33,935 nt of DNA, from assembly GCA_964549305.1 (NCBI GenBank), contig CAZJVM010000010.1, forward strand, positions 18,613 through 52,547, given 5' to 3'. Made by a program: the position numbers and the translations under genes. This document shows, one piece after another, positions 408-16,904 of the stretch (positions are counted from its first letter, which is position 1; the number at the start of each line of letters is the position of its first letter). Source of the stretch: an uncultured bacterium (GTDB lineage Bacteria; Schekmanbacteria; GWA2-38-11; J061). The notes under the pieces are model-generated. The model ran no database searches. It saw only the letters and a program-made list of their open reading frames with translations, and was not told the origin of the DNA.

Positions 408-1160
408 TTACATTTTTTTGTTCATAATGAAACTGTTTCGCCAGACACCTTCCTTCTGATATTGTGTTGCAGTCCAGTTGGGATTTGCTTTGAGCCATTC
501 ATTGAATGCTTTCTGTTCGCCGAGGGCGGGATTTCCCCTGAATGTGTACCAATCGTCAAAGATGATTATCGTGCCGTCAACGAGAAGCGGTTTGATGAAA
601 TTGAGGACAAGAATTGCCGACTCATAAAGGTCTGAATCAATGTGAACGATTGCCGCGTGCTTCAAACCCTCTCTTTTTATTGTCTCATCGTTAAGGGAAT
701 CTTTAAACCATCCTGACACAACCTTTACCTTATCCGAAGGCACACCGCTTGCGCTGATGTTTTTAAGGAATCCTTCCTTCGTGTTTGCGTATTTGCCCTC
801 GGTAAAATCAGCGGAAAGCTTGTCAGTGTCCTGAGGTGCGGGAAGTCCTTCAAAGGAATCGAAGGCGACAAACTTCATCTTGTCCCAAAGCTCTTTCCTT
901 ACTTTGCGGTCTTCCTCCGAATTCCAAATGGAAGGCGAGAAGGACTCCTCGAAGGAATTTTTTATGAGCCGGTACGCAAGGGAAAAGCTTTGTCCTGAAT
1001 AGACGCCGAATTCAAGATAATCTCCCTCGATTTTGTTGCCCGAGATGAAACTTCCTGCTTTTGAAAAAATCGTTTCTCTTTCGTTTATGATGAATTCACC
1101 GAATTTTTTTCTCAAGGGGTAAAGAATTCTCTTAAAAAAATTTTTTCCCTGTAAATTCAT
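408..1160 (-). CDS. TylF/MycF/NovP-family SAM-dependent O-methyltransferase
   Basis: Motifs GDYLEFGVYSG, FDSFEGLP, GWFKDSL, HIDSDLYES and IIFDDW. Confidence 0.85.
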   Translation of the reverse strand: MNLQGKNFFKRILYPLRKKFGEFIINERETIFSKAGSFISGNKIEGDYLEFGVYSGQSFSLAYRLIKNSFEESFSPSIWNSEEDRKVRKELWDKMKFVAFDSFEGLPAPQDTDKLSADFTEGKYANTKEGFLKNISASGVPSDKVKVVSGWFKDSLNDETIKREGLKHAAIVHIDSDLYESAILVLNFIKPLLVDGTIIIFDDWYTFRGNPALGEQKAFNEWLKANPNWTATQYQKEGVWRNSFIMNKKM

Positions 1161-1176
1161 TTTTTCCCACTTTTTG

Positions 1177-2322
1177 TTAGAGGTTCATCTTAGCCAATTT
1201 TTCATAGATTTCAGAAAATTTATCAAGCATATAATCTGGCGAAAATTTTTCCGATACCTTTTTTTTTGCTTCTATTCCCAGTTTATCCCTCAATGCCTCT
1301 TCGCAGATAAGTGATTTTAGGGCGTTGGCAAGAGCGTCTGAGTCGGCAGGGGGGATGAGAATGCCGTTGACTTTGTCACATATGAATTCAGGTATGCCGG
1401 AAACATTGGAAGCTATAACGGGCTTTTCGAAATATGCCGCTTCGAGCATTGTGACGGGAAATCCTTCTGAAAGCGAAGGCGACACCACGATGTCGGATGC
1501 CTGCATTATATTTCCCATATCGTCGCGAAATCCGCAGAATAGGCACTTTTCGTATATCCCCCTCTCGCGGCATCTTTCCTCGAGACTTTCCCTTTCCGGA
1601 CCGTCTCCGGCAAAAAGGAAATAAGTATTGTCGTAATTTTTCCTAATCTTAGATGCGGCATCGATGAAACATTCGAATCCTTTCTGTTTCGTCATTCTTC
1701 CTGCCTGAGTGATCACAACGGCTGATTGGGGAATGGAAAGGGATTTTCTCGTCTCTGCGGCAGATTGTGTGGCTTCGATTGACCGGAAATCAATACAGGG
1801 ATAAACGGTTTCTATTATTCCCTCCGGTATTCCGTAATCGCGGATGAGACTCTGCCTGAGATAGTCCGACACCGTTACGATGAGGGATACCTTTGAAGCG
1901 GTATATTTTTCTATTTTCATATAGATGCTTTTCCTTAAGGCGCTTACGGGATAATCTTTTATGGAGTTGTGAACCGTGGACATAACAGAGGGAATTCCCG
2001 CTCGAAACGATGCTAACCGTCCGTAAAAATTAGACCTTGCGCCGTGGGTGTGGACTATTTGAGGCGATGAGCTTTTAAGATATTCGCTCAGGCGTGATAA
2101 AACCTCGCGGCTTAAAAGACTTCTGTTTATCTCTATAACCTTTGGTGAATATCCGAGTGCCTGAAGTCTCTCGTAAAGCGCGCCCCTTTCAGGAAGGATG
2201 AAATCGAGAGTGAATCTTTGCCGGTCAAGATATTTCGCGAAAATAAGAAGATATTTTTCACCGCCTCCTATTCCGCCTGCGGATATGATGTGGGTTATCT
2301 TTATTTTATCCATTTTTCCCAA
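1177..2322 (-). CDS. Glycosyltransferase family 4 (GT-B); ATG at 2313 is an alternative start
   Basis: IGGGEK N-terminal loop, VHTH, GRMTKQKG and the EGFPVTMLEA (EX7E) motif. Confidence 0.9.
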   Translation of the reverse strand: MGKMDKIKITHIISAGGIGGGEKYLLIFAKYLDRQRFTLDFILPERGALYERLQALGYSPKVIEINRSLLSREVLSRLSEYLKSSSPQIVHTHGARSNFYGRLASFRAGIPSVMSTVHNSIKDYPVSALRKSIYMKIEKYTASKVSLIVTVSDYLRQSLIRDYGIPEGIIETVYPCIDFRSIEATQSAAETRKSLSIPQSAVVITQAGRMTKQKGFECFIDAASKIRKNYDNTYFLFAGDGPERESLEERCRERGIYEKCLFCGFRDDMGNIMQASDIVVSPSLSEGFPVTMLEAAYFEKPVIASNVSGIPEFICDKVNGILIPPADSDALANALKSLICEEALRDKLGIEAKKKVSEKFSPDYMLDKFSEIYEKLAKMNL

Positions 2323-3493
2323 TGATTTTAAAAATTCCTTCGCAGAATTCCTTTGCGCGGTTTTCCCATCTGTGTTTTTCCAGAATCGCCTGCCTACCGC
2401 TTTTCCCCATTTTTACCGCTCTTTCCGGGTCTGCGAGAAGGTCGGTGATCCTTTGTGCCAATTCTTCCGTTTTTTCGTGGTCAACTGATATGCCCGCGTC
2501 GATTGATTCCACAAACTCTCCGTATTCGGGACAGTTGCTTGCGACAACAGGTCTTTCGCAGGAAAGATATTCGAACACCTTCATCGGTGACCCGTAATTG
2601 CTTCGTATCATCTTGAAGAACGCGATGCACAGGTCAAAAGCGGATATATAGCGCGGAATCTGTTCATAGCTTACAAATCCGGTCCAGATTATATATTCCC
2701 CTATGCCAAGCTCTCTGCTTAATTTCTCGAGCGGATTTCTCATCTCGCCGTCTCCCACTATGAGAAAGCGTATGTTGCCGTTTCTGCTTATAATTTCAGG
2801 AGCTGCATGGAAAAGATATTCAAGCCCGTGCCAGGCGCACAGACTGCCCACGAATCCAATGTAGGTGTGCCGGGGGTCAAGTTTAAGCTCTTTGCGCGCC
2901 TGATCTTTTTCTATGGGGTGGAACAGACTCGTATCAACGGCGTCCCTGATTACGGAAGTGCGCTCATATTTTTTCCCGCGGGAAGTTACGGCATAGTTTC
3001 TTACAGGTTCTGAGACTGCAGAAACAAAGTCGCACAGAGAGACATTCATATTCCACGAAAGCTCTGCGATGAAAGATGTTAAAGGGTTTCTTCCAAGCGC
3101 CTTCATATCTTCGCCAATGATGCTGTTAAGATAGAGAAGGACGGGGATTTTGAGAAGTTTCAGAGTGGGAATAATTGTCGGGATGCCGTAAAGGTCAAAG
3201 CAGATGACGGCATCGGGTTTTTTTCGGGCAAAGTGCTTCATTAAAAAGAAGGGCGCGAGAGTTATCAGACTGAGGGGTCTTAGATATTCAATGTCAACGC
3301 GCGGCATATGGCACAATGGTAATTCTCGAAAATTATCCCCACCTGAGGTTTTGGGCGCAATCAATTCTATATTGTGTCCAAGGGATTTTAACGCCTTTGC
3401 AAAGTTGACTATCTGAATGCCCTCTGCGTTGAGCGACGACATGTCAACATGACAGATTACGCTTATGTCAAGAGACGGGCGTTTCTTATCCAT
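2306..3493 (-). CDS. Glycosyltransferase family 4; likely start ATG 3493 (MDKKRPS), overlapping the upstream flippase stop
   Basis: FVGSLCAWHG, LIVGDG and SPMKVFEYLSCERPVVAS. The ORF-track extension to 3589 lies inside the upstream gene. Confidence 0.85.
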   Translation of the reverse strand: MDKKRPSLDISVICHVDMSSLNAEGIQIVNFAKALKSLGHNIELIAPKTSGGDNFRELPLCHMPRVDIEYLRPLSLITLAPFFLMKHFARKKPDAVICFDLYGIPTIIPTLKLLKIPVLLYLNSIIGEDMKALGRNPLTSFIAELSWNMNVSLCDFVSAVSEPVRNYAVTSRGKKYERTSVIRDAVDTSLFHPIEKDQARKELKLDPRHTYIGFVGSLCAWHGLEYLFHAAPEIISRNGNIRFLIVGDGEMRNPLEKLSRELGIGEYIIWTGFVSYEQIPRYISAFDLCIAFFKMIRSNYGSPMKVFEYLSCERPVVASNCPEYGEFVESIDAGISVDHEKTEELAQRITDLLADPERAVKMGKSGRQAILEKHRWENRAKEFCEGIFKIIGKNG

Positions 3494-5078
3494 TTTTTGC
3501 GCTTCCCGAAAGTTTCCCCGCGACACTTTGCCGCAGAGAGGTGAATATAGAGGCAATCTTCTCTTTCTCTTTTCTGTCAAGAAAGGCACTGTTTTTTATA
3601 ATGAGATAGTATGCCCCTGTAAAGATAATACCTTCTATTACGAAATAGAGCGCTTTCCCGGAGAAGCTTTCATAATGGTAAATTCTGCTGAATATGAGGC
3701 AGGGGACAAGGCAGATTGCCGATAAAACAAATGAGTGAAGGACCATTTTAAAAAATATCGCCATCGGTTTTTTATAGTGCGAGTGAAATTTGAATACGAG
3801 AAAAGCCGAGTAAAATAAGAATGTTATCGCTGTAGCAATGACACAACCCGCAAGTCCGTATTTCATTATGAGTATGATGCTGAGCAGAATATTCACGATT
3901 GAAGCGTAAACGCTCGTTTCCATTTCGAATTCCGGTTTGCCTATGCCTATGGAGACAACATTTGCTACGCCCGACAAGAGGTTGAAGTAGTATCCGGCGC
4001 ACATAACGAGAAGAACGATTTCAGCGGGAAGATAAGATTTTCCCAGCCATAATTCGAGGACTAAACGGGCATTCAGCGCAAGGAAAACGAAAAGCGGCGT
4101 GGTGAATATAAAAAGATATTTGGACGCTTTTATGTAAAGATTCCACACATCATTGGCGGTACGCGTCGAATCCACTTCGCTTGCCGCGGGAGTTATGGCG
4201 GAAACCATCAGCAGAGGGAAAGACCTTGCGATTGATGCAACGCGGTTTCCGATGTCATAGAAACCGATTGCCGCGGTGTTGAGGAAGTATCCGATAATAA
4301 ACCTGTCGGTCTGAAAATTTATGAGATACGCGATTTTTGCAACCTGCACCTTGTAGCCGAAGGAGAATATTTTTTTGAAGGTATTTCCGTCTATGCGTGA
4401 AGGCAATAATTTCATTTCAGGGAAAACCCTGTAGGCAAAGATTAAATAGAGAATAGCGCTCAGAAGCGCGAAGCCCACTTCGTTTAAAGCAAGCCCTCTA
4501 AGCCCGTATCCCGAGAGGAGGACGAATATTATTCCACCTGCGCGCGGTATCGATGCCGCGATTTTTATAAGATTGAGAACGCCCATTTTCTGGAATCCTT
4601 CAAAGAGTGAGCGCACGGGAGTTATGGCGCTTTGAAGACAGAAAGCGAGAATTCCGTAAATTAAGACTGAGCGCGTCTCGTCCATATACGGTGCCGGGAT
4701 TTTTAGAACAGAGAGAAAAAAATCCACGAGCAGATAGCAGGCGGCAAACTGCGCCGCGGCAAGGGGAAGGTAAAAGAGAAGTCCGTGGTTTATGATGTTG
4801 TTGATTTGCTCCGTTTCCTGTTTCGCCTTGTGCTCGGCAAGGTATTTCGTGAATGACCCTCCCGCGCCAAGGTCGAGAAGACTGAAGTAGCTTGTAACCG
4901 TAAACATAACCGCCCAGATGCCGAATTTCTCGGCGCCGAGAGTCCTGAATATAAAGGGGGTGAGAAAAAAATTGATGAGTATTTGGGAGAAGTTTCCCAT
5001 ATAATTATAGGCAGTGTTGCCAATAATTTTTTCAGATACAGATAAGTCTTTGTCCGACTTTTCGTTCCATTCGTCCAT
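3486..5078 (-). CDS. Wzx-type polysaccharide flippase (MOP superfamily)
   Basis: 530-aa multi-TM protein with TPFIFRTLGAEKFGIW, LLDLG and QTDRFIIGYFL...IGFY patterns typical of O-antigen/EPS flippases. Confidence 0.85.
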   Translation of the reverse strand: MDEWNEKSDKDLSVSEKIIGNTAYNYMGNFSQILINFFLTPFIFRTLGAEKFGIWAVMFTVTSYFSLLDLGAGGSFTKYLAEHKAKQETEQINNIINHGLLFYLPLAAAQFAACYLLVDFFLSVLKIPAPYMDETRSVLIYGILAFCLQSAITPVRSLFEGFQKMGVLNLIKIAASIPRAGGIIFVLLSGYGLRGLALNEVGFALLSAILYLIFAYRVFPEMKLLPSRIDGNTFKKIFSFGYKVQVAKIAYLINFQTDRFIIGYFLNTAAIGFYDIGNRVASIARSFPLLMVSAITPAASEVDSTRTANDVWNLYIKASKYLFIFTTPLFVFLALNARLVLELWLGKSYLPAEIVLLVMCAGYYFNLLSGVANVVSIGIGKPEFEMETSVYASIVNILLSIILIMKYGLAGCVIATAITFLFYSAFLVFKFHSHYKKPMAIFFKMVLHSFVLSAICLVPCLIFSRIYHYESFSGKALYFVIEGIIFTGAYYLIIKNSAFLDRKEKEKIASIFTSLRQSVAGKLSGSAKNG

Positions 5079-5112
5079 ATTTAGTCTGATAATATTTTTA
5101 TTGGGTATGAAG

Positions 5113-5141
5113 TATAATGTATAATAACATTACATAATGTT
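5113..5141. promoter_or_regulatory. Tandem TATAAT hexamers followed by the palindrome AACATTA-CA-TAATGTT in the divergent wzx/FkbM spacer
   Basis: TATAAT at 5113-5118 and 5120-5125; perfect 7-bp inverted repeat at 5126-5141. Confidence 0.45.
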
Positions 5142-5218
5142 GCTGAAAAAGTTTTATTTGAAGTTGAAGCAATGATAACATTTTATTAACAAGCCAATCG
5201 GCATATGGGGACAGTATT

Positions 5219-6106
5219 TTGGTAAATGCTGAAAAATCAAATATTTCGCCTGCCCGGGAAAAATCAGGAAAAACGTTCAGGGAAATATACGAAAAAACTC
5301 CCCACTTCAGGGGAAAGTGGCAGATTTTCAATCTCTTCGGCAAAAGCTTGAGAGGGAAGGGGTATGAGACGGTAATAACATTTGATATGGGGCAGAAGAT
5401 ATGTCTGTGTCTCGATGACTGGATTCCCTATCAGATTTTTCTTACCGGATATTACGCAATTGAATACAGGCATACTATTTATTTCAGAAACCTCATCAAG
5501 AAGGGAATTGTTTTTTTTGATGTGGGCGCGAATATCGGCTATTACACCCTGCAGGCATCTCCCCGGACTGGATTTGAGGGGAAGGTTTTTTCTTTTGAGC
5601 CGGTGAGCGCTACATACGGGAAGCTCGTTGAAAATATCTCCTTGAATTCACTGAAAAATGTTTTTCCTCAGAAGCTTATAGTCTATGAAAAGGAGTGCGA
5701 ATTGGAGATATTGCCCGGCGATTGCGGTAATACGGGCTCGGCGAAGCTTGCCCCGGCAAATTCCGCTTCCCGGTCAGACGCGGAAAAGGTCAGGGCTGTA
5801 ACTCTCGACTCTTTCGTGAAAGAGAACGGAGTGGATAGGATTGATGTCGTGAAGATTGATGTGGAGGGGAGCGAGTTTTCAGTGCTTCGCGGAATGAAGA
5901 ATATCCTTTCCGAAATGAATCCCAAACTACTCATTGAACTTACCGAGCATACCCTGAAGGCGCGAGGCACATCGTGCGAAGAGGTTATAGCATTTTTGCG
6001 CGGTTTCGGATACGAACCTTATAGCGTCAGATCAGGTGAAGAGAAACCGGCAGATATTTCAAAGATAAGGCGTGAATCCCTCGTGCTTTTCAAAAAGGAA
6101 GAGTAG
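5219..6106 (+). CDS. FkbM-family methyltransferase
   Basis: FFDVGANIGYY, VFSFEP and VVKIDVEGSEFSVLRG. Confidence 0.9.
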   Translation: MVNAEKSNISPAREKSGKTFREIYEKTPHFRGKWQIFNLFGKSLRGKGYETVITFDMGQKICLCLDDWIPYQIFLTGYYAIEYRHTIYFRNLIKKGIVFFDVGANIGYYTLQASPRTGFEGKVFSFEPVSATYGKLVENISLNSLKNVFPQKLIVYEKECELEILPGDCGNTGSAKLAPANSASRSDAEKVRAVTLDSFVKENGVDRIDVVKIDVEGSEFSVLRGMKNILSEMNPKLLIELTEHTLKARGTSCEEVIAFLRGFGYEPYSVRSGEEKPADISKIRRESLVLFKKEE

Positions 6107-6130
6107 GGGGGGTGGGGGAAAGAAAAAGTT

Positions 6131-7615
6131 TTATTCCTCCTTTTCTTTTTTTATTCCCGAAATGACAAGCAATTCTTCTAACTGCTTTTTGTTAAAAATC
6201 GCGCTTAAAAGGAGATATATGGCTATTCCCGAAATCACGCACAAAGTGAATGTTATGCCTTCTTCACTATCGTGAGGGAAAAGGGATTTTATAAAGAGAA
6301 GCGAGAAGGCCATAAGGACGCTGTTTGCGAATGAAGGCGCGAGGGTTTTCGCCAGTTGTAAGACTTTCAGGTTTATGAGGCGAAAGGGTATGGCAAACTG
6401 CGGATATGAAAGGAGTAATACTGCGATTGCGTATCCTCCGGCAACTCCCGTTATGCCCCAGCGAAGTCCCATTATGAAAACGGCTATTAACAGCAATCCT
6501 GTGCCCACGCCCCAGCGAAACATCCAGTCGGTACGCCCCTTTGCCTGATAAATCGCGCCCACCGTCGTGCCGATTGATTGAAAAAGCCCCACAGGCGCGA
6601 GTATCATAATGAGCAGGATTACCGCCTCCCATTTCGCGCCGAAGACTGTCAGTACGAATGGTTTGGCGAGGATGAAAACTCCTGCCATCAGAGGAAAGGA
6701 TATGAACCCGATTGTTGCCGCGACCTTGAGATAGATTTCGCCGAAGCGCCTGTTGTCATCCTGTATGCTCGAATAGACAGGAAACATAACACGCCCTATT
6801 ACGGCGGATATGTTTTGAAGGGGAAAGAGGAGTATGCGGTAAGCAAGGGTGTAATAACCGAGATTTTCGGCGCCGAGATACCTGCCTATCAAAAAATAGT
6901 CGGCGTTGCGGGAGAAGTAGTTGAAGATGCTGAACCCCGTGAGATTTAAGCTGTAACTGCTCACCGATTTTACTTCGCGCCAGCGGAAAATAAGACTGGG
7001 GCGCCAACGGCTTGAAAACCAGAGAAGTATTGTAGTTACCGTGACGAGGGTCAATGACTGGACTACGAGACTCCATACTCCGCCACCTAAAAGCGCGAAT
7101 CCTATGCCCGCAAAGGAAGAACAGAATACTGCCGTTATTTCTATTTTCCCCAGTGCGCGGAAATTGAGGGACCTTTCCATCAGCGATTGGTGTAAAATGC
7201 TCACACCTGAAATGGCAAAGCTTACAGAGAGTACACGAAGCACTGGCACTACCTGAGGGTTTTTGTATAACAGTCCGCCTAAAGGGGCACCCAGAAAAAC
7301 GACTGCCGTAGAAAGGAAACCGAATCCCGCGTTAAGCCAGAAAATGCTCGAGAGAAGCTCTTTAGATAAATCCTGTTTTTGAATGATTGCCGCAGATGTG
7401 CCAAGGTCTTTGAAAATAGCTATGAAACCAGTAACGACCACTGCCATTCCAAGAAGCCCGAAATCAGAGGGCGCAAGAAGACGGGCGAGAATTAGCGTCG
7501 TTATGAGTTGCGCGCCCTGACGGAAAACCTGCGACAAGGTTGACCACTTTACGCCAGTGACGGAACGGTTTTTTAAGTCTGTCGAAATTTTGTTATTACT
7601 GCTGTATAAATCCAT
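6131..7615 (-). CDS. WzxC-like lipopolysaccharide/EPS flippase
   Basis: GVKWS...ILARLLAPSDFGL, DLGTSAAIIQ and NADYFLIGRYLGAENLGYY resemble colanic-acid WzxC-type flippases. Confidence 0.88.
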   Translation of the reverse strand: MDLYSSNNKISTDLKNRSVTGVKWSTLSQVFRQGAQLITTLILARLLAPSDFGLLGMAVVVTGFIAIFKDLGTSAAIIQKQDLSKELLSSIFWLNAGFGFLSTAVVFLGAPLGGLLYKNPQVVPVLRVLSVSFAISGVSILHQSLMERSLNFRALGKIEITAVFCSSFAGIGFALLGGGVWSLVVQSLTLVTVTTILLWFSSRWRPSLIFRWREVKSVSSYSLNLTGFSIFNYFSRNADYFLIGRYLGAENLGYYTLAYRILLFPLQNISAVIGRVMFPVYSSIQDDNRRFGEIYLKVAATIGFISFPLMAGVFILAKPFVLTVFGAKWEAVILLIMILAPVGLFQSIGTTVGAIYQAKGRTDWMFRWGVGTGLLLIAVFIMGLRWGITGVAGGYAIAVLLLSYPQFAIPFRLINLKVLQLAKTLAPSFANSVLMAFSLLFIKSLFPHDSEEGITFTLCVISGIAIYLLLSAIFNKKQLEELLVISGIKKEKEE

Positions 7616-7645
7616 ATTTTTTTATAAGGTTTTTGTGACAGGAGT

Positions 7646-8863
7646 TCATAAAATGCTTTCGTAAATATTTAAAAGTCTCTTGTTGAGACTTTTTATATCA
7701 TAGTTTTCTTCCACGAATTTTCTTCCCGATTTTCCCGATTGCGCGCGGATTGCGGGATTTTCTACAAGGAATTCTATTTTTTCCGCAATGGCATCGACAT
7801 CCTTTTGAGGTACGAGAAAAGCCGAGTTGTCCCGCGATAGTGTTTCCGGAATTCCTCCGATTGAGGAAGCTATTACGGGAATGCCCGATGACTGCGCCTC
7901 GAGAAGCACCAGTCCCTGTCCCTCCGTTGCGCCGTTTTCCCCGATTATGCTTGGAAGAATGAATATATGCGCTTTTTCGTAGAGATTCAGCACTTCCGAT
8001 TCGTCTGCCAATCCCGTAAAAAAGACATTTTTTTCAAGCCCCGATTCCGCTGTCAATGATTTGAGTTTTTCCTTCAAGGGTCCGTCTCCCGCAACAGTGT
8101 ACCGTATCTGCGGATATTTTTTTACTGCCTTTGCAATCGCTCTTATGGCGTATTCGTGCCCTTTTTCCTCTACAAGTCGTCCCACGGTCAGAATGTTTAC
8201 GGATTCTCCTTCCTTATTTTTTTTCTCACAGAATTTGAATTTTTCCGTGTTTACTCCAACAGGAAGAATGGTTATCTTTTCCCCGTCGCATCCCAACTCA
8301 ACCACTTTGTTTTTGATGAAGTTTGTGTTTGCGGTGAAGATGTCACCATTTTTGAATAATTCCTTATATACATCTCCGCCTGCTGTTTGGGGATAGCAGT
8401 TAACGTCGTATCCGTGAAAGCTTGTAAGATATTTTCCTGCAACCCCCGCCTTTTTCAAAAACATTCCGAAAAGTCCGTTAGTGCCGAAGTGACAGTGTAT
8501 GATGTCGAATTTTTTCTCGATGAAGGGGACTGTTTTATACAGAAGATTCAAAGAGAGAGCGTTTTTCCCGTAACTAAAAAAATTCAGCGCCCTGAGGATT
8601 TTCAAAGGCGCTTTCGGAAAATTTACCGAGATTAAGGATATTGCCTTGAGTATCCTTATTATCCTGTTGCAGGGAGGAGTCAGATAGGTGACTTTCTCCA
8701 TAAGGCGGTATTTTTCAATGTCCTGATGCCTCTTGCCTTCATTGGGATTGTATTGGGCTAATATTTCAACTTCCTGCCCCAAGTCTATTAGCCCCGTAAT
8801 CTGATTCAGAATAAATGTTTCAGACAGAGTGGGAAATCCGTTTACTATAAAAGCTATTTTCAT
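7646..8863 (-). CDS. GT4 glycosyltransferase, WcaL/AmsK-like
   Basis: FPTLSETFILNQITGLID, HCHFG, SFHGYD, VGRLVEEKG and EGQGLVLLEA. Confidence 0.88.
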   Translation of the reverse strand: MKIAFIVNGFPTLSETFILNQITGLIDLGQEVEILAQYNPNEGKRHQDIEKYRLMEKVTYLTPPCNRIIRILKAISLISVNFPKAPLKILRALNFFSYGKNALSLNLLYKTVPFIEKKFDIIHCHFGTNGLFGMFLKKAGVAGKYLTSFHGYDVNCYPQTAGGDVYKELFKNGDIFTANTNFIKNKVVELGCDGEKITILPVGVNTEKFKFCEKKNKEGESVNILTVGRLVEEKGHEYAIRAIAKAVKKYPQIRYTVAGDGPLKEKLKSLTAESGLEKNVFFTGLADESEVLNLYEKAHIFILPSIIGENGATEGQGLVLLEAQSSGIPVIASSIGGIPETLSRDNSAFLVPQKDVDAIAEKIEFLVENPAIRAQSGKSGRKFVEENYDIKSLNKRLLNIYESIL

Positions 8864-8911: not shown

Positions 8912-9130
8912 TCAGCTGAATTTTTTCCCCTTCTTCTTCCTGCATTTCTTCAGCCTTTTTTCAACGGATTCATTATGCTTGGGGCATTTCGGCTTGTGCT
9001 TTTTTTTGTCGGCAAAGGCATCGTCTTCAAGTGAAATAATCTGAGGGCTTACCCATACCTTAAGCACTGCCGCAGTTGCGGCTACTGTGGCGACTTTTTT
9101 GCCTTTTTTAAGAAAATCTCTTCTTTTCAT
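8912..9130 (-). CDS. 72-aa putative RiPP precursor / twin-arginine peptide
   Basis: AAGGAG SD at 9137-9142; starts 12 nt after the rSAM stop; double TGA stop. Contains KRRDFLK, a hydrophobic stretch, WVSPQI, AFA and a Lys-rich two-Cys tail. Confidence 0.75.
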   Translation of the reverse strand: MKRRDFLKKGKKVATVAATAAVLKVWVSPQIISLEDDAFADKKKHKPKCPKHNESVEKRLKKCRKKKGKKFS

Positions 9131-9142
9131 TTTTTACTCCTT

Positions 9143-10138
9143 TTAAATTGCCGGGCAAAGGGGATATTCGCTCCATATGTTTTCCGTAAGCGCGTATGCC
9201 AGTGCCCTGCATCCGCCCTTGCAATCGGCTTTTTCTTTACAGCTTGCGCATCTTCCGCCAAGTTTTTTTGAGTCTAAATAATTTCCGAATTTTGAAATGT
9301 CTTTCCAGCACTGCCTGAGACCTTTTTCAGGGACACTGTTTCCTTCCTTCCAGAGTGCTGATAGCGTGCAGGGATAAAGATTGCCGTCAAAGGTTATCGT
9401 AGAGCAAAAGGAGTTTTCGTCGCCCAGTGAGCATTCCGCTGCCCTGCCGTCTTCGAGCATTGAAAGGGTAAAGCTCGAGAATTCCACTTCCCCCGGCTTT
9501 TCCCGCGAATTTATTTCGTCAACAAAAGCTTCAAGCTTTGAAAGCATTTCCGTGGGAGGTTTGAGAAGATTGTAATTAGCTATTGCACGTCCCATAGGAA
9601 TCACTTCGTCGAGATCGATTTTTTTTATTCCCATACTTTTCAGCATTTCTGTCATTGCCGGAATGTGGGCTATATTTTGGGCGGTAATAGTTGTTTTCGT
9701 GTGAAGCGAAATATCCTTTTTAAGGCAGATGTTCAGGGCATCGATGATTTTATTGAAAGATTTGCCCATCATCTTATCGTTGATGAGCGCGTTGGGACCG
9801 TTAATGCTTATTTGAATGTCGCGAAGTCCGCAACCTATGAGCTTATCGATTATTTTATCATCAATCAGAGTGCCGTTTGTGGTGAGTTCGACGGCGATAT
9901 TATTTTTTCTGAGTTTTTCTATTATTGTAAATACTTCAGGTTCGCAAAGAGGTTCACCTCCCGTTAGAATCACTTTCAGAACTTTACCCCCGATTATTTC
10001 ATCCAGTATAAAAAACCTCTCTTTCTGAGAGAGAATGGCATCTCTTCCTCTTCCGGCATCAACAAGGCAAAAGGAGCAGGAAAGATTGCATTTTTTTGTA
10101 AATGACCAGGTTACTTCAATGGGGGTTTCTAAAATCAT
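9143..10138 (-). CDS. Radical SAM/SPASM-domain protein (PqqE/MftC-like peptide maturase class)
   Basis: CNLSCSFC (CxxxCxxC), LTGGEP and TTNGT. C-terminal SPASM cysteines C..GNLYPC..CASCKEKADCKGGCR..C. Confidence 0.9.
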   Translation of the reverse strand: MILETPIEVTWSFTKKCNLSCSFCLVDAGRGRDAILSQKERFFILDEIIGGKVLKVILTGGEPLCEPEVFTIIEKLRKNNIAVELTTNGTLIDDKIIDKLIGCGLRDIQISINGPNALINDKMMGKSFNKIIDALNICLKKDISLHTKTTITAQNIAHIPAMTEMLKSMGIKKIDLDEVIPMGRAIANYNLLKPPTEMLSKLEAFVDEINSREKPGEVEFSSFTLSMLEDGRAAECSLGDENSFCSTITFDGNLYPCTLSALWKEGNSVPEKGLRQCWKDISKFGNYLDSKKLGGRCASCKEKADCKGGCRALAYALTENIWSEYPLCPAI

Positions 10139-10143
10139 TTTCG

Positions 10144-10425
10144 TTACGTTAGAGAGACAATCTTTTTTTCCGCTAAATTTTCAATGAAAGCGATTACTTC
10201 CTTTTCTATTACGGCGGAATCTCCTTCGAACTGTTTTACGGTTTCTTCCGTTATTTCCCTGACACTTAGCATTCCGTCGCATAATTGCCAGATAAGAGTG
10301 CCTGTTTCATTAAGAAGATAAGGTTCGCCTTCTTTGTCATCGAATATGACCGCTTTCCCTTTCTCCGTGCGGGACAAAATGTTGTCTCGGGGAACCGGTA
10401 TTTTCTCTGATATCTTATTTTTCAT
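10144..10425 (-). CDS. PqqD-family protein / RiPP recognition element
   Basis: 93 aa with LNETGTLIWQLCDG..SVREI and EVIAFIENLAEKKIV, the typical PqqD pattern. Confidence 0.9.
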   Translation of the reverse strand: MKNKISEKIPVPRDNILSRTEKGKAVIFDDKEGEPYLLNETGTLIWQLCDGMLSVREITEETVKQFEGDSAVIEKEVIAFIENLAEKKIVSLT

Positions 10426-11392
10426 AGGTTTTCTCTAAAAGCCCTTTTACCGCAAAGGGAATCTCTTCGAAATGTTTTTCCAAATTATATTTTATTTCAT
10501 AGAGAGGCACCCTGTCGAATATAAAATTTGCGATTTCAAAAGCGCTCCTGTTGTTTCTCCTGATTTGGGCGTTAATACCTTTTTCAATTTCATCTGGAGT
10601 CATCAATTCCGAAAGTGAAACAACGCGGTAGAGAGACGATATTTCATCAAGATGATTAATTCTCACCCTTTCAAAATCCGGGGAGTTTCTTAAAATGGCA
10701 AAAAGGCAGAGGGGGCTTTTTTTTGCTATGCAATTTCGGTTTATCTCGCGCGGGTCGAGTATATAGCCCTTTTCATAAACAGCTTCATATTGTTTTACGT
10801 TATAGGATTTCAGGAATTGTTTTCCTTCAATACTTTTCGCGAAACTTTCTCCAAGTCGGAGGTTTCTCGGGAAGGAGAGTATATGAGGTGTTTCGCCTTC
10901 TATCTCAACAAGTGAATCTTCGTCGGAAAGATAGGAAAATCCCTCTTTTATGAAAGACGCGGAAATCGTTGTTTTCCCCGCTCCTGAGTCGCCGGATAAA
11001 AGCGCGCCCCTGCCGAAAAGCGCTACTGATGCTGAATGAAGCGATGCCGCGCGCCTGCGAGATGAAATGACGTATCGCGCGAGATATCCTATTAGCGACA
11101 GGGTCACAAGCACTGCGTCGTCGCGCGAGAATTTATCCCTGCCTGTGACGATTCCTGAAAGGTTGTTTAAATCGGCGTGACTGTAGATTGTGTCGGTAAT
11201 CTGTTCGTGTTTTTTTATACTTTGCTTTGCTCGGGAAGAAGATTCAGTTGATTGAAAATGTACCGAAACTTCGGGAGTCGAAGGTTTTGATTCAAATTCC
11301 CTGATTTCTTCTTTAACGCACCGGGCAACTGTCGCGGAATCAGAGCGAAGTCTGACTATGATGCCGTGCATATTGAAAAAAAATTCTTTCAT
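10415..11392 (-). CDS. HPr kinase-related P-loop kinase
   Basis: LHSASV, Walker A GDSGAGKTT and YLSDED. Lacks the HprK N-terminal domain and overlaps the PqqD start by 11 nt. Confidence 0.8.
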   Translation of the reverse strand: MKEFFFNMHGIIVRLRSDSATVARCVKEEIREFESKPSTPEVSVHFQSTESSSRAKQSIKKHEQITDTIYSHADLNNLSGIVTGRDKFSRDDAVLVTLSLIGYLARYVISSRRRAASLHSASVALFGRGALLSGDSGAGKTTISASFIKEGFSYLSDEDSLVEIEGETPHILSFPRNLRLGESFAKSIEGKQFLKSYNVKQYEAVYEKGYILDPREINRNCIAKKSPLCLFAILRNSPDFERVRINHLDEISSLYRVVSLSELMTPDEIEKGINAQIRRNNRSAFEIANFIFDRVPLYEIKYNLEKHFEEIPFAVKGLLEKTYEK

Positions 11393-11492: not shown

Positions 11493-12665
11493 ATGAAAAC
11501 TTTTTTCATAGAAAAGGGGAGTCCCGAATATTCCTTTTTAATGGGCGCGCTCAGAGGTTTTATGCGTCATAACGATTCAGAGGAATACGGCAGGCGCGCG
11601 GGAGAATTGAACTGGCAGGGGATAATCGATGAAGCCGATATGCTCGATGTTTTCCCTTTCCTTTACGGGGCGATTGCGAATTCTCCTTTTAAAAATGACG
11701 TGCCCGCGCACCTTTTTTTAATGATTGAAAAGGAATATTACGCCAATCTGTCAAGGAATCTCCGGCTTTTAAAGGAAGCGAAACAAATTGCGCAAAGTGC
11801 CGGGGATGAAGGCGCGCGACCGCTTCTTCTTGGCGGAATATCTCTTCTGGGCTCGGTTTATGAGGATTACGGATTAAGGCATATCGGCGATATTGATATG
11901 CTGGTCAGCGACAAGGACAAAAATAAAGTTTTTCGAATTCTCCGAAAAAAAGGATATTCCCCCTTCGGAAAATACGCGGATTCCTTTTGCCGCGATGATA
12001 TTTCCATTGATATTAAAACAGATATAATAAGCGCCGGGAGAATTGCTTCAAGAAAGGCGGTTTTCCCCGTAAGTGACAGCTTTTGTTTTGAGGGGAGATT
12101 GTCACACTGTGAAATAAAGGAAGCGGACATTCTCGCCGCGCCGTGGCAGTTGATTGAATCTTCCCTTCACCTTTTCAAGCATTCCTTCTCGAGAATTATG
12201 TGGAGTATCGATATTGCCGCGATTATAAGAAAATATTCCTGCGAAGAATTTTATTCCCGCGTAATATCACTTGCGGAGTCAAACGGTGTGCATCTGCCTC
12301 TCTATTACTGCCTTAAATACGCTGACGATCTTAGGCTTGCAAAGGTTGATGGGGAAGTGCTTGAAACCCTGAAGCGCGGTTTTAGGGAAAAGTGGTTTGG
12401 AAGAAGGATTTATTCCATGCTTTCTGAAGGCAGGGGCGCGGAGCAGATATCGGAAATTCTCGCAATGCAGGTTAAATGCGGAATTTCTGCAAAGTTCAAA
12501 TTTTTCTTTGAATCGTTGTTTCCGCGAAAAAGAATAATGAAGGGAATCTATCCGAAATGTCCCGTTTCTATTATTTATGCCGCCTATATTCCGCGATTCT
12601 TTTCAATGTTGATTAAATTTTTTTCACTTTCCCTTCGCGCTGCGACCCATCGAAAAGGCGGATAA
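11493..12665 (+). CDS. Uncharacterised nucleotidyltransferase (NTP_transf_5-like)
   Basis: Helical N-terminus (LNWQGIIDEA..VFPFLY), Y...RN, and the catalytic-type motif GISLLGSVYEDYGLRHIGDIDMLV. Confidence 0.8.
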   Translation: MKTFFIEKGSPEYSFLMGALRGFMRHNDSEEYGRRAGELNWQGIIDEADMLDVFPFLYGAIANSPFKNDVPAHLFLMIEKEYYANLSRNLRLLKEAKQIAQSAGDEGARPLLLGGISLLGSVYEDYGLRHIGDIDMLVSDKDKNKVFRILRKKGYSPFGKYADSFCRDDISIDIKTDIISAGRIASRKAVFPVSDSFCFEGRLSHCEIKEADILAAPWQLIESSLHLFKHSFSRIMWSIDIAAIIRKYSCEEFYSRVISLAESNGVHLPLYYCLKYADDLRLAKVDGEVLETLKRGFREKWFGRRIYSMLSEGRGAEQISEILAMQVKCGISAKFKFFFESLFPRKRIMKGIYPKCPVSIIYAAYIPRFFSMLIKFFSLSLRAATHRKGG

Positions 12666-14098: not shown

Positions 14099-14800
14099 AT
14101 GGGAATAATAACGTTTTCCAAGGAGTTTGCCAGCGGTGGAAGAGAAGTTGGCGAAAATGTGGCAAAGAAGCTGTTTTTTTCCTATTTTGACAGAGAAATC
14201 GTCAAGCAGGTTGCCCTGAAATCAAAAGTGCCCGAAATTGCTGTGCAGGAATATGACCAGGATATGTACAATCCAATGCGCGTTTTTTTCTCCCGTGTAA
14301 TGGACCCCGTATTAAGCAGCAGCAGATACAAAAGCCTTGCCATTCCCGCGGGAAGCGAATCTGCTAAAAAGAAAAACCGGAAAAGGTTCAAGCCCTATGA
14401 GTGTGAAGTTGATGGCTGGCTTGACAGCGACATTTTCAAGGAAATGATAGAGTCTTTCATACTGGAAATTGCAGATAAAGAAGATGCCGTTATCGTTGGC
14501 AGAGGCGCGCAATGCATACTTAAAGGCGTAGCAGGAGTTTTTCACGTGAGAATAGTTTCTCCCGTAGATTACAGGGTCGAAAGGGCGGTTAGGGAGAAAA
14601 GGATTATGCCCGGGGACGCAAAAAAGACAATCCTTGATATTGACAGGAGAAGAAGAGCATATATTAAAAACAACTATGATTATGATTGGGAAGACCCTCT
14701 TCTATACCACCTGATAATCAATACAGGCTGTATCGACTTGCAGAGTGCGACAGATATTATAGTCGATGCCTACGGGAAATATTCTTCTATGAGGAATTAA
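14099..14800 (+). CDS. Cytidylate kinase-like family protein; likely start ATG 14099
   Basis: IITFSKEFASGGREVG, VIVGRGAQCIL and DPLLYHLIINT. GAGGTG SD precedes the ATG. Confidence 0.8.
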   Translation: MGIITFSKEFASGGREVGENVAKKLFFSYFDREIVKQVALKSKVPEIAVQEYDQDMYNPMRVFFSRVMDPVLSSSRYKSLAIPAGSESAKKKNRKRFKPYECEVDGWLDSDIFKEMIESFILEIADKEDAVIVGRGAQCILKGVAGVFHVRIVSPVDYRVERAVREKRIMPGDAKKTILDIDRRRRAYIKNNYDYDWEDPLLYHLIINTGCIDLQSATDIIVDAYGKYSSMRN

Positions 14801-16071
14801 CCCTTTGCTCCCTTCTTTGATGCTCTCAAAATCAAATATGTAATGAGGACGCCTCCTATGAAAGCGATAATGAATATCACTATTATAGGGACCTCTTCGT
14901 GGGAAGTTTCAATCTCGGCACTGTTGTGCGTGTTACTTGCCATTTCGACTTCCATTGTCTTGAGGGAGATTACGGGAGTCTGCATCTGATACTTCAGGAT
15001 ATTTTCGACCTTGTATTTTTTCAAACCCGAGGGCTTCTTGAATTCAAATGTTTCCTTTCTTGCTTCTTTCGGGGCGATTCTGTTGTCGCTTAAAACCCTT
15101 GCCGCATAGAAAAAGATATCCTTTATGTTCTCGAGTTCTTTTCCCGCTTCGTCAACGAGGACTTTTCTGTATGCACGGGACTGACTCGACACTACTTCGT
15201 TTTTTTCGTTTAAAAGATTTACTTCAAGTATGATTTTTCTTGAAGGTATTCCGGTGGGAATTTTATGTCCCGACTCCCTGTTGAATACGGTGGTGTTTAC
15301 TATGATTTTATCTCCGTTGTCTTCAATTTTTGACGAGATTGTGGCTGCTTTATTGAGCTTAATCTGTGAATGTCCTCCGAAAACGGAATGGTCTTTTGCA
15401 AAATTGTTTGTTTTCTTTACATCGGGATTTACATCGTTAACACCGAACATTTCCGGCATATGGCAATTCTGACACTTTATACCTTCCTTGCTGTATGAGC
15501 TTTCCTTCCATTCTGAGTAAGTGCCGAGAATCGTTACGCCGTTTTTCCCCTTCATTTCGTGGCAGGAACCGCATATTTTAGCAGTTTTATGGACTTCAGA
15601 TTCTTTTATTTTATGCGCGGGCGAAGATATGTTGTCGAAAGGTCCTCTCATTACATTGCCCGGGTCATTCGATATGGTAGGAATTGCCGTCTCCATATTG
15701 ACATTGGTAATTGTATGGCAGAACGTGCAGGTAATACCTTCCGATGATATATCCGCTTTTAATTCGTAATCTTCCGTTCTTCTCGTTGTGGGACTGTGGC
15801 ACTGAAGGCAGAATTTCCTTGCCTCATCGCCCTTGTCTTTTATCGCTTCCATAAAAGAAACTTCAAAAATCGGGTCTGAAATCGCCGCCGCGTGCATCGA
15901 GGCATTCCAGTTTTTGTAAATATCTGTGTGGCAGTTTTTACAAATATTGCTCGATGTAAAATCCAGACGGTTTACTTTTAAATTCACTGCCTCTGAAATA
16001 AAAGAAAAAGAAGTGATAAAAAATAAAATGCTGAAGAAAACTGCATTTACCCCCCCCCTGCTACGGAACAT
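14797..16071 (-). CDS. Membrane-anchored pentaheme c-type cytochrome
   Basis: Five CxxCH motifs (CKNCH, CLQCH, CTFCH, CGSCH, CQNCH), N-terminal signal peptide, GHKIPTG motif, C-terminal TM helix with basic tail, AAGGAGG SD. Confidence 0.88.
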   Translation of the reverse strand: MFRSRGGVNAVFFSILFFITSFSFISEAVNLKVNRLDFTSSNICKNCHTDIYKNWNASMHAAAISDPIFEVSFMEAIKDKGDEARKFCLQCHSPTTRRTEDYELKADISSEGITCTFCHTITNVNMETAIPTISNDPGNVMRGPFDNISSPAHKIKESEVHKTAKICGSCHEMKGKNGVTILGTYSEWKESSYSKEGIKCQNCHMPEMFGVNDVNPDVKKTNNFAKDHSVFGGHSQIKLNKAATISSKIEDNGDKIIVNTTVFNRESGHKIPTGIPSRKIILEVNLLNEKNEVVSSQSRAYRKVLVDEAGKELENIKDIFFYAARVLSDNRIAPKEARKETFEFKKPSGLKKYKVENILKYQMQTPVISLKTMEVEMASNTHNSAEIETSHEEVPIIVIFIIAFIGGVLITYLILRASKKGAKG

Positions 16072-16290
16072 ATTAACCCTCCTTATCCGAAAAGGAATAG
16101 ATGATTTTAATATAATTCTGCTTTTGAAAAAAATGTAGTAAATGTAGTTGCAAAAATGTAAATAACAGATAACAGATTTTAAGCCAATTTGTCAATTTTT
16201 GCTTTAATCATTGCTGAAAGTGACAATGTTTATTTTCTTATGTATTAGAAATATATCGTAAAAACAATGCCTTATATTTTTTTTAAAAAA

Positions 16291-16306
16291 TGGCATAAAA
16301 ATTGCT
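16291..16306 (+). promoter_or_regulatory. Sigma54 (-24/-12) promoter for the cytochrome c3 gene
   Basis: TGGCAT-AAAAA-TTGCT matches TGGCAC-N5-TTGCW with exact GG-N10-GC spacing, about 95 nt upstream of the ATG. Confidence 0.75.
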
Positions 16307-16401
16307 TTATCTGTAAGATGAGACTTTTTAAGTTTTTTAATCTGTACAATTTTGACACTTAAATGTTATAAAACCACAGTAAAGAGGAGGTGAGAAAAGA
16401 G

Positions 16402-16809
16402 ATGAAGAAAATCAGCTTGTTAATCGTAGCAGTTGTATCGATGTTTGCAATGTCAGTGACTTTTGGCGTTTTTGCTGAGGATTTTCAAATTCCTGAAAAG
16501 ATAACGATTGATATCGTACAGGAAAAGAAACCTGCTGTTGTATTCCCTCACAAAGAACATATTGACAGGAAAACAGAATGTACAATTTGTCATCACAAGA
16601 GAGAAGGCGAAGCAAAACCGAGAAAATGTGAAACTTGTCACGACAAGACAAAGGATGACGGAAAGAAGATTGCAATCAAGGGAAATCCTCCTACAAGTTC
16701 AAAGAGGGGTATTTTCCATGTAAGATGCATCACCTGCCATAAGGCAGAAAAGAAGAAAAATCCGTCAACAAAGGCACCTACAGTATGTACAAAATGCCAT
16801 AAGAAGTAA
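16402..16809 (+). CDS. Class III tetraheme cytochrome c3; start ATG 16402
   Basis: Sec signal ending VFA, FPHKEH distal His ligands, CTICHH, CETCH, CITCH and CTKCH. AGGAGGT SD at 16385-16391. Confidence 0.9.
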   Translation: MKKISLLIVAVVSMFAMSVTFGVFAEDFQIPEKITIDIVQEKKPAVVFPHKEHIDRKTECTICHHKREGEAKPRKCETCHDKTKDDGKKIAIKGNPPTSSKRGIFHVRCITCHKAEKKKNPSTKAPTVCTKCHKK

Positions 16810-16842
16810 TTTTTCCGGAGATTCCGGATAGCATATTATAGC

Positions 16843-16878
16843 GAGGGAGAGAAAGTGATTTTCTCTCCCTCAAGTTTT
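16843..16878 (+). terminator. Stem-loop (terminator/attenuator) between cytochrome c3 and resB
   Basis: GAGGGAGAGAAA-GTGAT-TTTCTCTCCCTC 12-bp stem followed by AAGTTTT. Confidence 0.65.
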
Positions 16879-16904
16879 AAAAAGTAATTACACTGGATGG
16901 CAAT

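Follow-up and report, generated by a model that had tools for sequence, protein, structure and literature searches.

A 33,935-nucleotide (nt) stretch of DNA from an uncultured Schekmanbacteria-like bacterium, which we call the window when we mean its whole length, carries on its minus strand, at positions 8912 to 9130, a 72-amino-acid (aa) open reading frame (ORF) next to genes for a PqqD-type protein and a radical S-adenosylmethionine (SAM)/SPASM enzyme. We find that this ORF is a real gene, and comparison of the encoded proteins supports the peptide as a precursor-type substrate of the adjacent PqqD and radical SAM genes. The explanation that we favor is that it serves as the precursor in a five-gene module making a peptide that is ribosomally synthesized and is post-translationally modified (RiPP), and that residues 1 to 40 make up a composite leader, in part resembling a twin-arginine translocation (Tat) signal and in part a sequence bound by a RiPP recognition element (RRE). 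This we hold tentatively, at slightly less than an even chance. An earlier note on the window had drawn a similar picture from MKRRDFLKK at the N terminus, an Ala/Val stretch, WVSPQI, AFA at residues 38 to 40, and a tail of 32 residues that includes 14 Lys as well as 2 Arg, 2 His, and 2 Cys, and all of these are present in the translation.

The precursor gene and its five-gene module

The genes concerned are the following, where G000 denotes the genome of the window and G003 and G004 are relatives with an orthologous module.

8912..9130, minus: precursor peptide gene, 72 aa (stop codon at 8912 to 8914), from translation, orthologues, and purifying selection
9137..9142, minus: AAGGAG ribosome-binding site, with an identical hexamer 5' of the G003 and G004 genes
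9143..10138, minus: radical SAM/SPASM enzyme of 331 aa, no fused RRE (PF04055, 84.9 bits)
10144..10425, minus: discrete PqqD-family RRE, 93 aa (PF05402, 57.5 bits; PDB matches)
10415..11392, minus: HprK-like P-loop protein, 325 aa, putative peptide kinase (TIGR04352, PF07475, 1ko7)
11493..12665, plus: PF14907 "uncharacterised nucleotidyltransferase," 390 aa, divergent (PF14907, 120.9 bits)

The translation of the peptide gene opens with MKRRDFLKK and ends in KKFS. In all three genomes compared at the DNA level (G000, G003, and G004), an AAGGAG hexamer lies 5 to 8 nt 5' of the ATG, and the peptide gene stands directly 3' of the same radical SAM gene, with a gap of 12 nt in G000 and 31 nt in G003 and with an overlap in G004. 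Pairwise comparisons of the gene among these genomes gave a proportion of nonsynonymous differences (pN) of 0.08 to 0.22 against a proportion of synonymous differences (pS) of 0.60 to 0.93. Because pS is near saturation while pN is low, the protein has been held, and we take the gene to be under purifying selection.

The peptide family is small. A profile search of five genomes of the phylum matched in three (G000, G003, and G004; E < 1e-37), which are all three genomes of family f1; the two unmatched genomes are both those of family f2, one of them only 70% complete. The family has five members, namely the window peptide, P0002 (96% identical), P0003 (with the source label of a Candidatus Schekmanbacteria metagenome-assembled genome), P0004, and P0005, which is the G004 gene. 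A word-index search gave eight candidates, of which three were relatives of the peptide, and a HMMER profile run against 1.84 billion representatives returned only the peptide's own cluster and a repetitive 1387-aa protein (P0006). Two metagenome scans and a first scan of genome-collection contigs found no further members. A second scan of genome contigs yielded 80 loci with only distant radical SAM proteins (22 to 38% identity); an HprK-like or PF14907 neighbor was found at none of the 80 and a PqqD-like ORF at two, and none of 30 regular-expression matches was judged to be a short precursor of the Tat type. The best score in a search of the ESM Atlas was 0.83, which gave no lead. Among sequencing runs listed as containing the sequence, none was of RNA, and two of DNA yielded only contig fragments that left most of the peptide gene uncovered. 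Counts from a promoter and terminator scan were within shuffle expectation, with no minus-strand terminator 3' of the peptide gene. An AlphaFold2 (AF2) model of the peptide alone (predicted local distance difference test [pLDDT] score, 60) showed helices at residues 3 to 27 and 54 to 67, at low confidence.

The module comprises the HprK-like putative kinase, the PqqD-type RRE, the radical SAM/SPASM enzyme, the peptide, and the divergent PF14907 nucleoside triphosphate (NTP)-transferase. On the minus strand the HprK-like gene comes first, the PqqD gene overlaps it by 11 nt, the radical SAM gene follows after 5 nt, and the peptide gene follows after 12 nt. In G004, which belongs to another genus and whose radical SAM protein is 48% identical, the five genes occur in identical order and orientation. 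The surroundings differ: in G000 and G003 the module lies with a polysaccharide locus containing GT4 transferases, Wzx-type flippases, and FkbM methyltransferases, and in G004 it is flanked by two response regulators on one side and by NUDIX and YchF genes on the other. The polysaccharide neighborhood is thus found in two of three genomes, both of the same genus, and is absent in G004. We regard the five genes as the unit because the set is kept in two different genomic surroundings. The module contains no candidate substrate besides the 72-aa peptide, and the earlier suggestion that the peptide is a maturase precursor gains from the adjoining radical SAM gene kept in three genomes and from an RRE motif in register (see below).

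A further point of the earlier note, the lack of a dedicated protease or transporter in the cluster, was borne out in both genomic contexts. Family scans of 12 window ORFs and 10 G004 ORFs found no protease or transporter belonging to the module; neither the five genes nor the genes flanking them in G000 and G004 encode a SipW-like signal peptidase, and the module has no MsbA-like exporter. The MOP/Wzx flippases at 3486 to 5078 and 6131 to 7615 are part of the polysaccharide locus and are absent in G004. This locus adjoins the module at positions 408 to 8863 and holds three GT4 transferases, two MOP/Wzx-type flippases, and FkbM and TylF-like methyltransferases; it is partly common to G003 and not to G004.

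The leader: proposed RRE-binding motif and Tat-like N terminus

Residue numbers are positions in the 72-aa window peptide, A-x-A stands for residues 38 to 40, and the core is residues 41 to 72. The peptide can be divided as follows.

9095..9130, minus: residues 1 to 12, basic n-region with the twin-arginine motif (MKRR-D/E-FL-K/E-KGKK), from conservation and TIGR01409
9062..9094, minus: residues 13 to 23, Ala/Val/Thr-rich hydrophobic stretch (h-region), from the uncharged run and Kyte-Doolittle values
9020..9061, minus: residues 24 to 37, K-x-W-x-S-P-x-(I/L)-I-S-L with an acidic run, the candidate RRE-binding motif, from register
9011..9019, minus: residues 38 to 40, A-x-A, proposed leader/core junction and putative signal peptidase I site, from invariance and register
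8915..9010, minus: residues 41 to 72, basic core in which two Cys (C-x13-C) and the C-terminal Phe-Ser are invariant, from the five-member alignment

Alignment of homologous peptides had been named in the earlier note as a check on its claims, and W26, P29, both Cys, A-x-A, and the terminal F-S proved invariant in all five members. Among the features pointed out in that note, those kept in every member are RR, F6, L7, W26, S28, P29, A38 and A40, the two Cys (spacing 14), and the F-S at the end. By segment, the n-region is the best conserved (10 of 12 columns invariant across the five sequences), followed by residues 24 to 40 (9 of 17), the core (13 of 32), and the h-region (4 of 11). The small number of invariant columns in the h-region would fit selection there for composition and not for sequence.

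To place the RRE, a profile of the three PqqD proteins was compared with PDB chains. Its best solved relative was 9x90_B (PbaB1; E 5.3e-9), followed by 5v1u (TbiB1; E 1.6e-4), 3g2b and 5sxy (PqqD; E about 2e-3), 6jx3 (TfuB1; E 3.8e-3), and 9x8z_B (LppB; E 0.18). According to the accessible text of the paper on linear polyphosphorylated peptides (LPPs) (Popov et al., Nat Commun 2026; PMC13381572), 9x90 is the leader-bound RRE of a paeninodin-like lasso pathway and 9x8z is LppB of the LPP family. A two-pocket hydrophobic cleft in PbaB1, divided by F83, holds W-15, P-12, and L-10 of the leader, and residues -9 to -7 of the PbaA leader extend the PbaB1 sheet (PMC13381572).

WVSPQI occupies residues 26 to 31 of the window peptide. 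Counted from A-x-A, the Trp falls at -15, the Pro at -12, Ile or Leu at -10, and Leu at -7 in all five members, and this register equals that of PbaA (W-15/P-12/L-10/L-7), bound to PbaB1. We mapped the pocket by hand over 12 PbaB1 residues; an offset of 18 residues, by which the deposited chain leads the numbering in the paper, fits all named residues. Identical or conservative pairs (PbaB1/window RRE) were L41/L38, I48/I45, F83/F80, L87/L84, L92/I89, and Y69/F66, while Y39/Y36 matched in two of three sequences and I44, L65, V71, E75, and Q79 differed. Because the RRE is nearest to PbaB1 and the W, P, I, and L offsets equal those of its ligand, WxxPx(I/L) is very likely the RRE-binding motif of the leader. 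The earlier note had recognized it as (Y/W)xxPx(L/I), and it takes the form WxSPx(I/L) in five of five members. In addition, the position of A-x-A agrees with the spacing of the RRE motif, which lends independent support to a leader/core junction after A40.

The N terminus has the features of a Tat signal, although to judge by profile score the likeness is marginal. The window peptide scores 17.7 bits with TIGR01409 against a cut-off of 16.7, the last of the eight above-cut-off matches in the genome. RRxFL is kept in all five members. The h-region is similar in composition to the genome's other Tat signals, and its 11 uncharged residues have a mean Kyte-Doolittle value of 2.18, the highest of the eight. 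The general machinery is encoded in G000, with TatC (207.9 bits), three TatA genes, and LepB (165.8 bits). One of the three, a tatA/E gene, lies in the window at 28493 to 28630 on the minus strand (TIGR01411, 69 bits), about 19 kb from the peptide gene. In G002, a profile of residues 2 to 37 also matched a 334-aa ORF at its ordinary Tat signal.

As a control, we compared two bona fide Tat substrates that are 64 to 65% identical between G000 and G004. Of the signal residues from RR to the cleavage site, 13 of 24 are kept in one and 13 of 25 in the other. The peptide leader keeps 24 of 38 residues between the same genomes (hand counts), though the enzymes of the module are only 48 to 56% identical. 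The leader is a little more conserved than the signals of these two controls, which would fit an extra constraint on it.

The core, its candidate enzymes, and related systems

In the core, Lys occurs 14 times, Arg and His twice each, and Cys twice (C49 and C63). It starts with D-K-K-K-H-K-P-K-C; residue -2 is F, Y, or D across the family, and core residue 3 is K or T. A 32-residue window equally rich in Lys and Arg occurs in 14 of 6122 G000 ORFs. Net charge across the members is +13, +12, +12, +11, and +5, the last being that of G004, and the three more distant members have 0, 0, and 1 His. The description of a highly cationic two-Cys core holds for the family only in part: both Cys are invariant in five of five, whereas the charge falls in G004 and neither His is conserved, so that only one genus has so cationic a core. 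This also weakens the earlier idea that the core binds polysaccharide, as neither the charge nor the polysaccharide locus is kept in G004.

The radical SAM protein has a CxxxCxxC motif (C17/C21/C24) and a seven-Cys SPASM pattern (C236, C257, C297, C300, C306, C310, and C328, read by eye), both invariant in three sequences. It opens directly with CxxxCxxC at residues 17 to 24, from which we conclude that it has no fused RRE. Its best NCBIfam matches are MftC (134.7 bits; cut-off, 265), then heme b synthase, NirJ, and PqqE (122.4 bits). Scores with thioether maturase models are 85.9 for PapB (cut-off, 340) and 65.1 for the SCIFF maturase (cut-off, 425), and every score with the curated maturase families (PapB, CteB/SCIFF, AlbA, StsB, and others) is below cut-off. 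The best PDB matches are PqqE (6c8v) and CteB (5wgg), and anSME and SkfB are also solved relatives. Thioether formation is the commonest chemistry for such enzymes on Cys-bearing substrates. With the fixed C-x13-C spacing, thioethers at the two invariant Cys are a plausible product, though we would put this somewhat below an even chance. An anSME-type formylglycine motif was ruled out, since the core has no C-x-P-x-R, and a heme CXXCH motif is absent from it.

The HprK-like protein scores 36.9 bits with TIGR04352 (cut-off, 200) and 24.6 with PF07475 (cut-off, 33.3), and it matches HPr kinase 1ko7 (E 3.9e-5) in the P-loop region only. The G-x-S-G-x-G-K-T/S-T (P-loop) and S-D motifs are invariant in six sequences. 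An AF2 model from four sequences (pLDDT, 30.4) was unusable. The relatives P0007 to P0009 and P0012 carry a precomputed PF27840 assignment, and Pfam scans gave none for the window protein. The PF14907 orthologue in G004 (140.4 bits) is likewise divergent. The named families touched by the kinase-like and PqqD proteins are only HprK-related/PqqD/radical SAM systems of NCBIfam, all far below cut-off.

Ser72 is the sole invariant hydroxyl residue in the core, as judged by eye on the alignment. In the paeninodin and pseudomycoidin lasso pathways, the precursor is phosphorylated at its C-terminal Ser by an HprK homologue, and the transferase PsmN adds a hexose to that Ser phosphate (PMC6993621, PMC8498205, in their accessible parts). 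We prefer Ser72 as the kinase target because it is the only invariant core hydroxyl and because of the paeninodin precedent. The chance is nevertheless only about even, or a shade under it, because paralogous precursors in G000 (C27-type, see below) lack a C-terminal Ser and because the LPP kinases LppK and BsfK use Ser3.

The kinase-like protein, the PF14907 transferase, and the invariant C-terminal Ser, all three passed over in the earlier note, would together tie the module to the phosphorylated lasso peptides and to the LPPs; from the wording of the available papers, both LppN and PsmN appear to belong to PF14907. The LPP and paeninodin families are described as restricted to Bacillota and of unknown function, and LPP clusters often lie within capsular polysaccharide loci (PMC13381572). 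The LPP kinase polyphosphorylates core Ser3, and the leader has the consensus YxxPxVLxHQxIxFETxxS (PMC13381572). Cleavage by the leader peptidase requires that the RRE present the leader, and LppS cuts an RRE-held leader in vitro with no need of an export step (PMC13381572). That paper, as far as accessible, also stresses RRE/peptidase co-evolution and discrimination between co-resident pathways: in Bacilli, LPP and paeninodin pathways ignore each other's precursors according to Tyr or Trp in the leader (PMC13381572).

As far as those parts allow comparison, our module resembles the LPP clusters in its core set (a lasso-type RRE as a discrete protein, a putative HprK-like kinase, and an "uncharacterised NTP transferase"), its [Y/W]xxP leader motif, the lack of a macrolactam cyclase, the proposed signal-peptidase logic of leader removal, the location in a polysaccharide locus (two of three genomes here), and co-resident sister pathways split by Trp (C10-type, C10 being the window contig) versus Tyr (C27-type) leaders. 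It differs in lacking the SipW-like peptidase and the MsbA-like exporter and in the added radical SAM/SPASM enzyme, a term ("radical SAM") that occurs 0 times in the available text of PMC13381572. The leader places W at -15 where the LPPs have Y at -16, shows no more of their consensus than [Y/W]xxPx[hydrophobic], and ends in an A-x-A junction; its first 23 residues are Tat-signal-like; core position 3 is Lys (K or T across the family), not Ser; the RRE is much nearer to PbaB1 than to LppB (E 5.3e-9 versus 0.18); and the host is Schekmanbacteria-like, not of the Bacillota.

Compared with paeninodin and pseudomycoidin in the accessible literature (PMC6993621, PMC8498205, PMC10368454), the module shares a B1-type RRE, WxxPx(L/I) at -15/-12/-10, a putative HprK-like kinase, a PF14907-type transferase, and a C-terminal Ser on the precursor. 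It differs in having a radical SAM/SPASM enzyme and a signal-like precursor N terminus. Neither a B2 cysteine protease nor a C macrolactam synthetase was found (12 window and 10 G004 ORFs), and the core has no ring-forming N terminus, no Asp or Glu at positions 7 to 9, and no Thr at -2. A lasso fold was ruled out on the missing B2 and C genes, ring-forming N terminus, and acidic residue at 7 to 9.

The enzyme itself resembles PqqE, MftC, CteB, PapB, and QhpD in its CxxxCxxC motif and seven-Cys SPASM domain without a fused RRE, and the PqqE/PqqD and MftC/MftB arrangements are echoed by the PqqD-family gene immediately upstream and the short Cys-containing substrate encoded alongside. Unlike in those systems, the substrate is unrelated to PqqA, MftA, or SCIFF, and the enzyme is joined by a kinase and a transferase. 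Compared by NCBIfam name, HPr-rel-A (TIGR04352/04353), SynChlorMet (ScmC/D/E/F), and GeoRSP (TIGR04302/04303) have like kinds of genes side by side; however, the scores of our proteins are far below cut-off (e.g., 36.9 versus 200, 45.2 versus 100, and 96.5 versus 400).

Proposed pathway, paralogous modules, and alternatives

We infer the chemical steps, export, and cleavage to proceed as follows. Residues 1 to 23 would be the Tat signal, with the RRxFL n-region and the Ala/Val/Thr-rich h-region; residues 24 to 37 would hold the lasso/LPP-type motif, bound by the discrete PqqD-family RRE as an added beta-strand; and A-x-A would mark the boundary between leader and core. In the cytoplasm, the RRE would grip the leader and offer the basic core of 27 to 32 residues to the enzymes. 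The radical SAM/SPASM enzyme would modify the core, with thioether cross-links at the two invariant Cys as the leading candidate, and the HprK-like kinase would modify it as well, with phosphorylation of Ser72 as the first choice; the PF14907 transferase may extend the phosphate. The RRE would then let go, the Tat system would export the modified peptide, and housekeeping signal peptidase I would cleave after A40. Such a cut would explain why the module, unlike its paralogues and the LPPs, has neither a SipW-like protease nor an ABC exporter.

The cytoplasmic chaperones TorD, DmsD, and NapD hold Tat signal peptides until maturation is complete. The proposed pathway is alike in that a cytoplasmic protein would bind inside the signal peptide of a substrate matured before Tat export; it differs in that the binder would be a RiPP RRE and the cargo a peptide of about 30 residues. 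That the RRE acts like a Tat proofreading chaperone and keeps the precursor in the cytoplasm until the radical SAM and kinase/transferase steps are complete, with general Tat and signal peptidase I in place of a dedicated exporter and SipW-like peptidase, is a speculative proposal that we think more likely wrong than right.

Paralogues of the module bear on this. A phmmer search of the module proteins against all six-frame ORFs of G000 revealed three further HprK-like/PqqD/radical SAM groups, on C27, C28, and C86.

L006:180-2956 and L126:1438-1986: C27 module, with precursor, radical SAM/SPASM enzyme with fused PqqD, HprK-like protein, and an S24/S26-like peptidase further 3'
L122:676-6452: C28 module, with PqqD, radical SAM/SPASM enzyme, HprK-like protein, SipW-type signal peptidase I, PF14907 protein, and a convergent ATP-binding cassette (ABC) exporter
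L123:1-2619: C86 group, with PqqD, HprK-like, and radical SAM genes at a contig end

On C27, a 54-aa ORF with a Y-x-S-P-x-I-I-T motif and one Cys lies just upstream of the gene for the radical SAM protein with fused PqqD (PF05402, residues 35 to 92) and of the HprK-like gene. It belongs to a family of six peptides with Y-(A/I)-(S/P)-P-x-(I/V)-I-T-Y-S-G-D, then ELGT, and one or two Cys. The first 25 residues of these peptides are hydrophilic and contain neither RR nor a hydrophobic run, and a C-terminal Ser is absent. Alignment by hhalign places the C27 motif on residues 21 to 39 of the window peptide. A genome-wide regular expression for the leader motif matched 15 short ORFs, only two of which, the C10 and C27 precursors, stand beside such modules; the expression had been widened after both sequences were seen and is not an independent test. 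The two co-resident leader families differ in having Trp (C10) or Tyr (C27) at the first motif position. A 182-aa S24/S26-like ORF follows about 3.3 kb after the kinase-like gene of C27; it scores 30.4 bits with TIGR02227, below the cut-off of 47, and matches the C28 peptidase by BLASTP (E 4e-7).

The C28 peptidase is of the SipW/archaeal type of signal peptidase I (TIGR02228, 59.9 bits; cut-off, 51.85), and the C28 PF14907 gene scores 164.9 bits. A precursor gene was searched for in the C28 module and not found. By gene content, the C28 group looks like an LPP-like set plus a radical SAM enzyme. Relative to that set, the window module appears to have lost the peptidase and the exporter, and its precursor appears to have gained a signal-like N terminus and the A-x-A junction. 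On C86, a run of N lies just 5' of the PqqD gene, and the next ORF (109 aa) is cut by the contig end; the idea that it is a lasso B2-like protease was dropped, as it matched no family.

Several observations tell against the pathway that we favor. Only two of the five family members reach TIGR01409 at E <= 0.1. Three of the five read RREFLE, with a Glu after RRxFL, a position at which the other RRxF-type N termini inspected in these genomes have no acidic residue and mostly Lys. The 11-residue uncharged run is the shortest of the genome's eight signals (13 to 23 in the others); it is followed by a Lys and 10 more uncharged residues, A-x-A lies 17 residues downstream of the run, which is unusually long, and the c-region before A-x-A is acidic. 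Taken alone, the likeness of the C27 and window leaders is weak (hhalign P, 0.0072; probability, 5%), and the C27-type precursors lack a C-terminal Ser despite an HprK-like neighbor. LppK and BsfK phosphorylate Ser3, not the C terminus (PMC13381572). The kinase annotation comes from the P-loop region only, with all family scores below cut-offs, and the radical SAM enzyme reached no curated family by which a chemistry could be assigned to it. Finally, the leader might be cut in trans by S24/S26-like peptidases that other parts of the genome encode. Of the Tat consensus cited in the earlier note, RRxFL is kept in every member, and we put working Tat export of the peptide at a little over one half.

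These points open the way to an RRE-dependent precursor without a working Tat signal. Its leader would be cut, in the cytoplasm or at the membrane, by one of the signal-peptidase-like S24/S26 enzymes of the paralogues, and the product would be exported by the C28 ABC exporter or retained, with RRxFL and the hydrophobic stretch serving for membrane targeting or enzyme contacts. Besides the marginal Tat scores, the Glu-bearing members, and the short uncharged run, such a route draws on the SipW-type and S24-like peptidases of two paralogous modules, the ABC exporter of one, and the cleavage by LppS of an RRE-held leader in vitro without export (PMC13381572). Against it, the n-region, with RRxFL in five of five, is the most conserved part of the peptide. 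In G004, moreover, the module stands alone, with no peptidase or exporter among the flanking ORFs, and the co-evolution of RRE and peptidase and the discrimination between pathways (PMC13381572, accessible text) argue against cutting in trans. We consider this route unlikely.

It is also conceivable that the signal is left uncleaved, so that the hydrophobic N terminus holds the peptide in the inner membrane as an anchor, with the modified basic tail displayed outside, for example, towards anionic polysaccharide or lipid. The high hydropathy of the h-region, the single long AF2 helix at residues 3 to 27 (at low confidence), and the polysaccharide locus around the module in G000 and G003 would fit such an anchor. 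However, a run of 11 uncharged residues is too short for a membrane span, the invariant A38 and A40 are located where the RRE-motif register predicts the leader/core junction, and the polysaccharide context is missing in G004, which makes the anchor improbable. That we are dealing with a small, basic, secreted protein of an ordinary kind, a mere neighbor of the enzyme genes and not a substrate of the enzymes, might be argued from the lack of direct evidence for its modification and from the existence of small Tat-targeted families (TIGR02811 and TIGR04401 match weakly, via the signal region only), but we give it very little credence, as the peptide gene adjoins or overlaps the radical SAM gene in three genomes with two different surroundings, its RRE-type motif is in the correct register, and the module offers no other candidate substrate.

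NCBIfam describes other signal-peptide-bearing radical SAM targets, and for this reason a signal on a radical SAM substrate may not be unique. A search of the open-access literature (subscription papers lie outside it) returned no paper joining twin-arginine, RiPP, radical SAM, and precursor peptide. Where twin-arginine signals and RiPP leader peptides do meet in the accessible literature, it is in engineered lanthipeptide systems, and neither Tat (twin-arginine) nor signal peptidase as a leader protease comes up in the accessible part of a review of RiPP leader proteases from 2023. As far as the open-access literature goes (the supplementary cluster lists of the LPP paper lie outside), the composite Tat-like/RRE leader would seem to be undescribed. 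What is already known is the LPP/phosphorylated-lasso-like set; its union with a radical SAM/SPASM enzyme and with a composite leader appears to be new.

If the favored explanation of a composite leader is true, it would join two separate fields, RRE-guided peptide maturation and Tat export with quality control, and a RiPP pathway could pass export and leader removal to general cell machinery. The window module and its paralogues would then offer an evolutionary snapshot in which a dedicated secretion and processing pair was swapped for that machinery. It would also extend the LPP/phosphorylated-lasso toolkit (RRE, HprK-like kinase, and PF14907) outside the Bacillota and couple it to radical SAM chemistry. 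The peptide would be among the smallest natural Tat cargos, and a 40-residue tag that recruits maturases and drives secretion would be useful in engineering. Independently of export, the co-resident W-type and Y-type leaders provide a second, independent test case for the 2026 RRE discrimination rule (PMC13381572, accessible text).

Elsewhere in the window, positions 14797 to 19189 hold, as read by eye only, genes for a multi-CXXCH cytochrome and a small CXXCH protein together with ResB/CcsB-like cytochrome c biogenesis genes.

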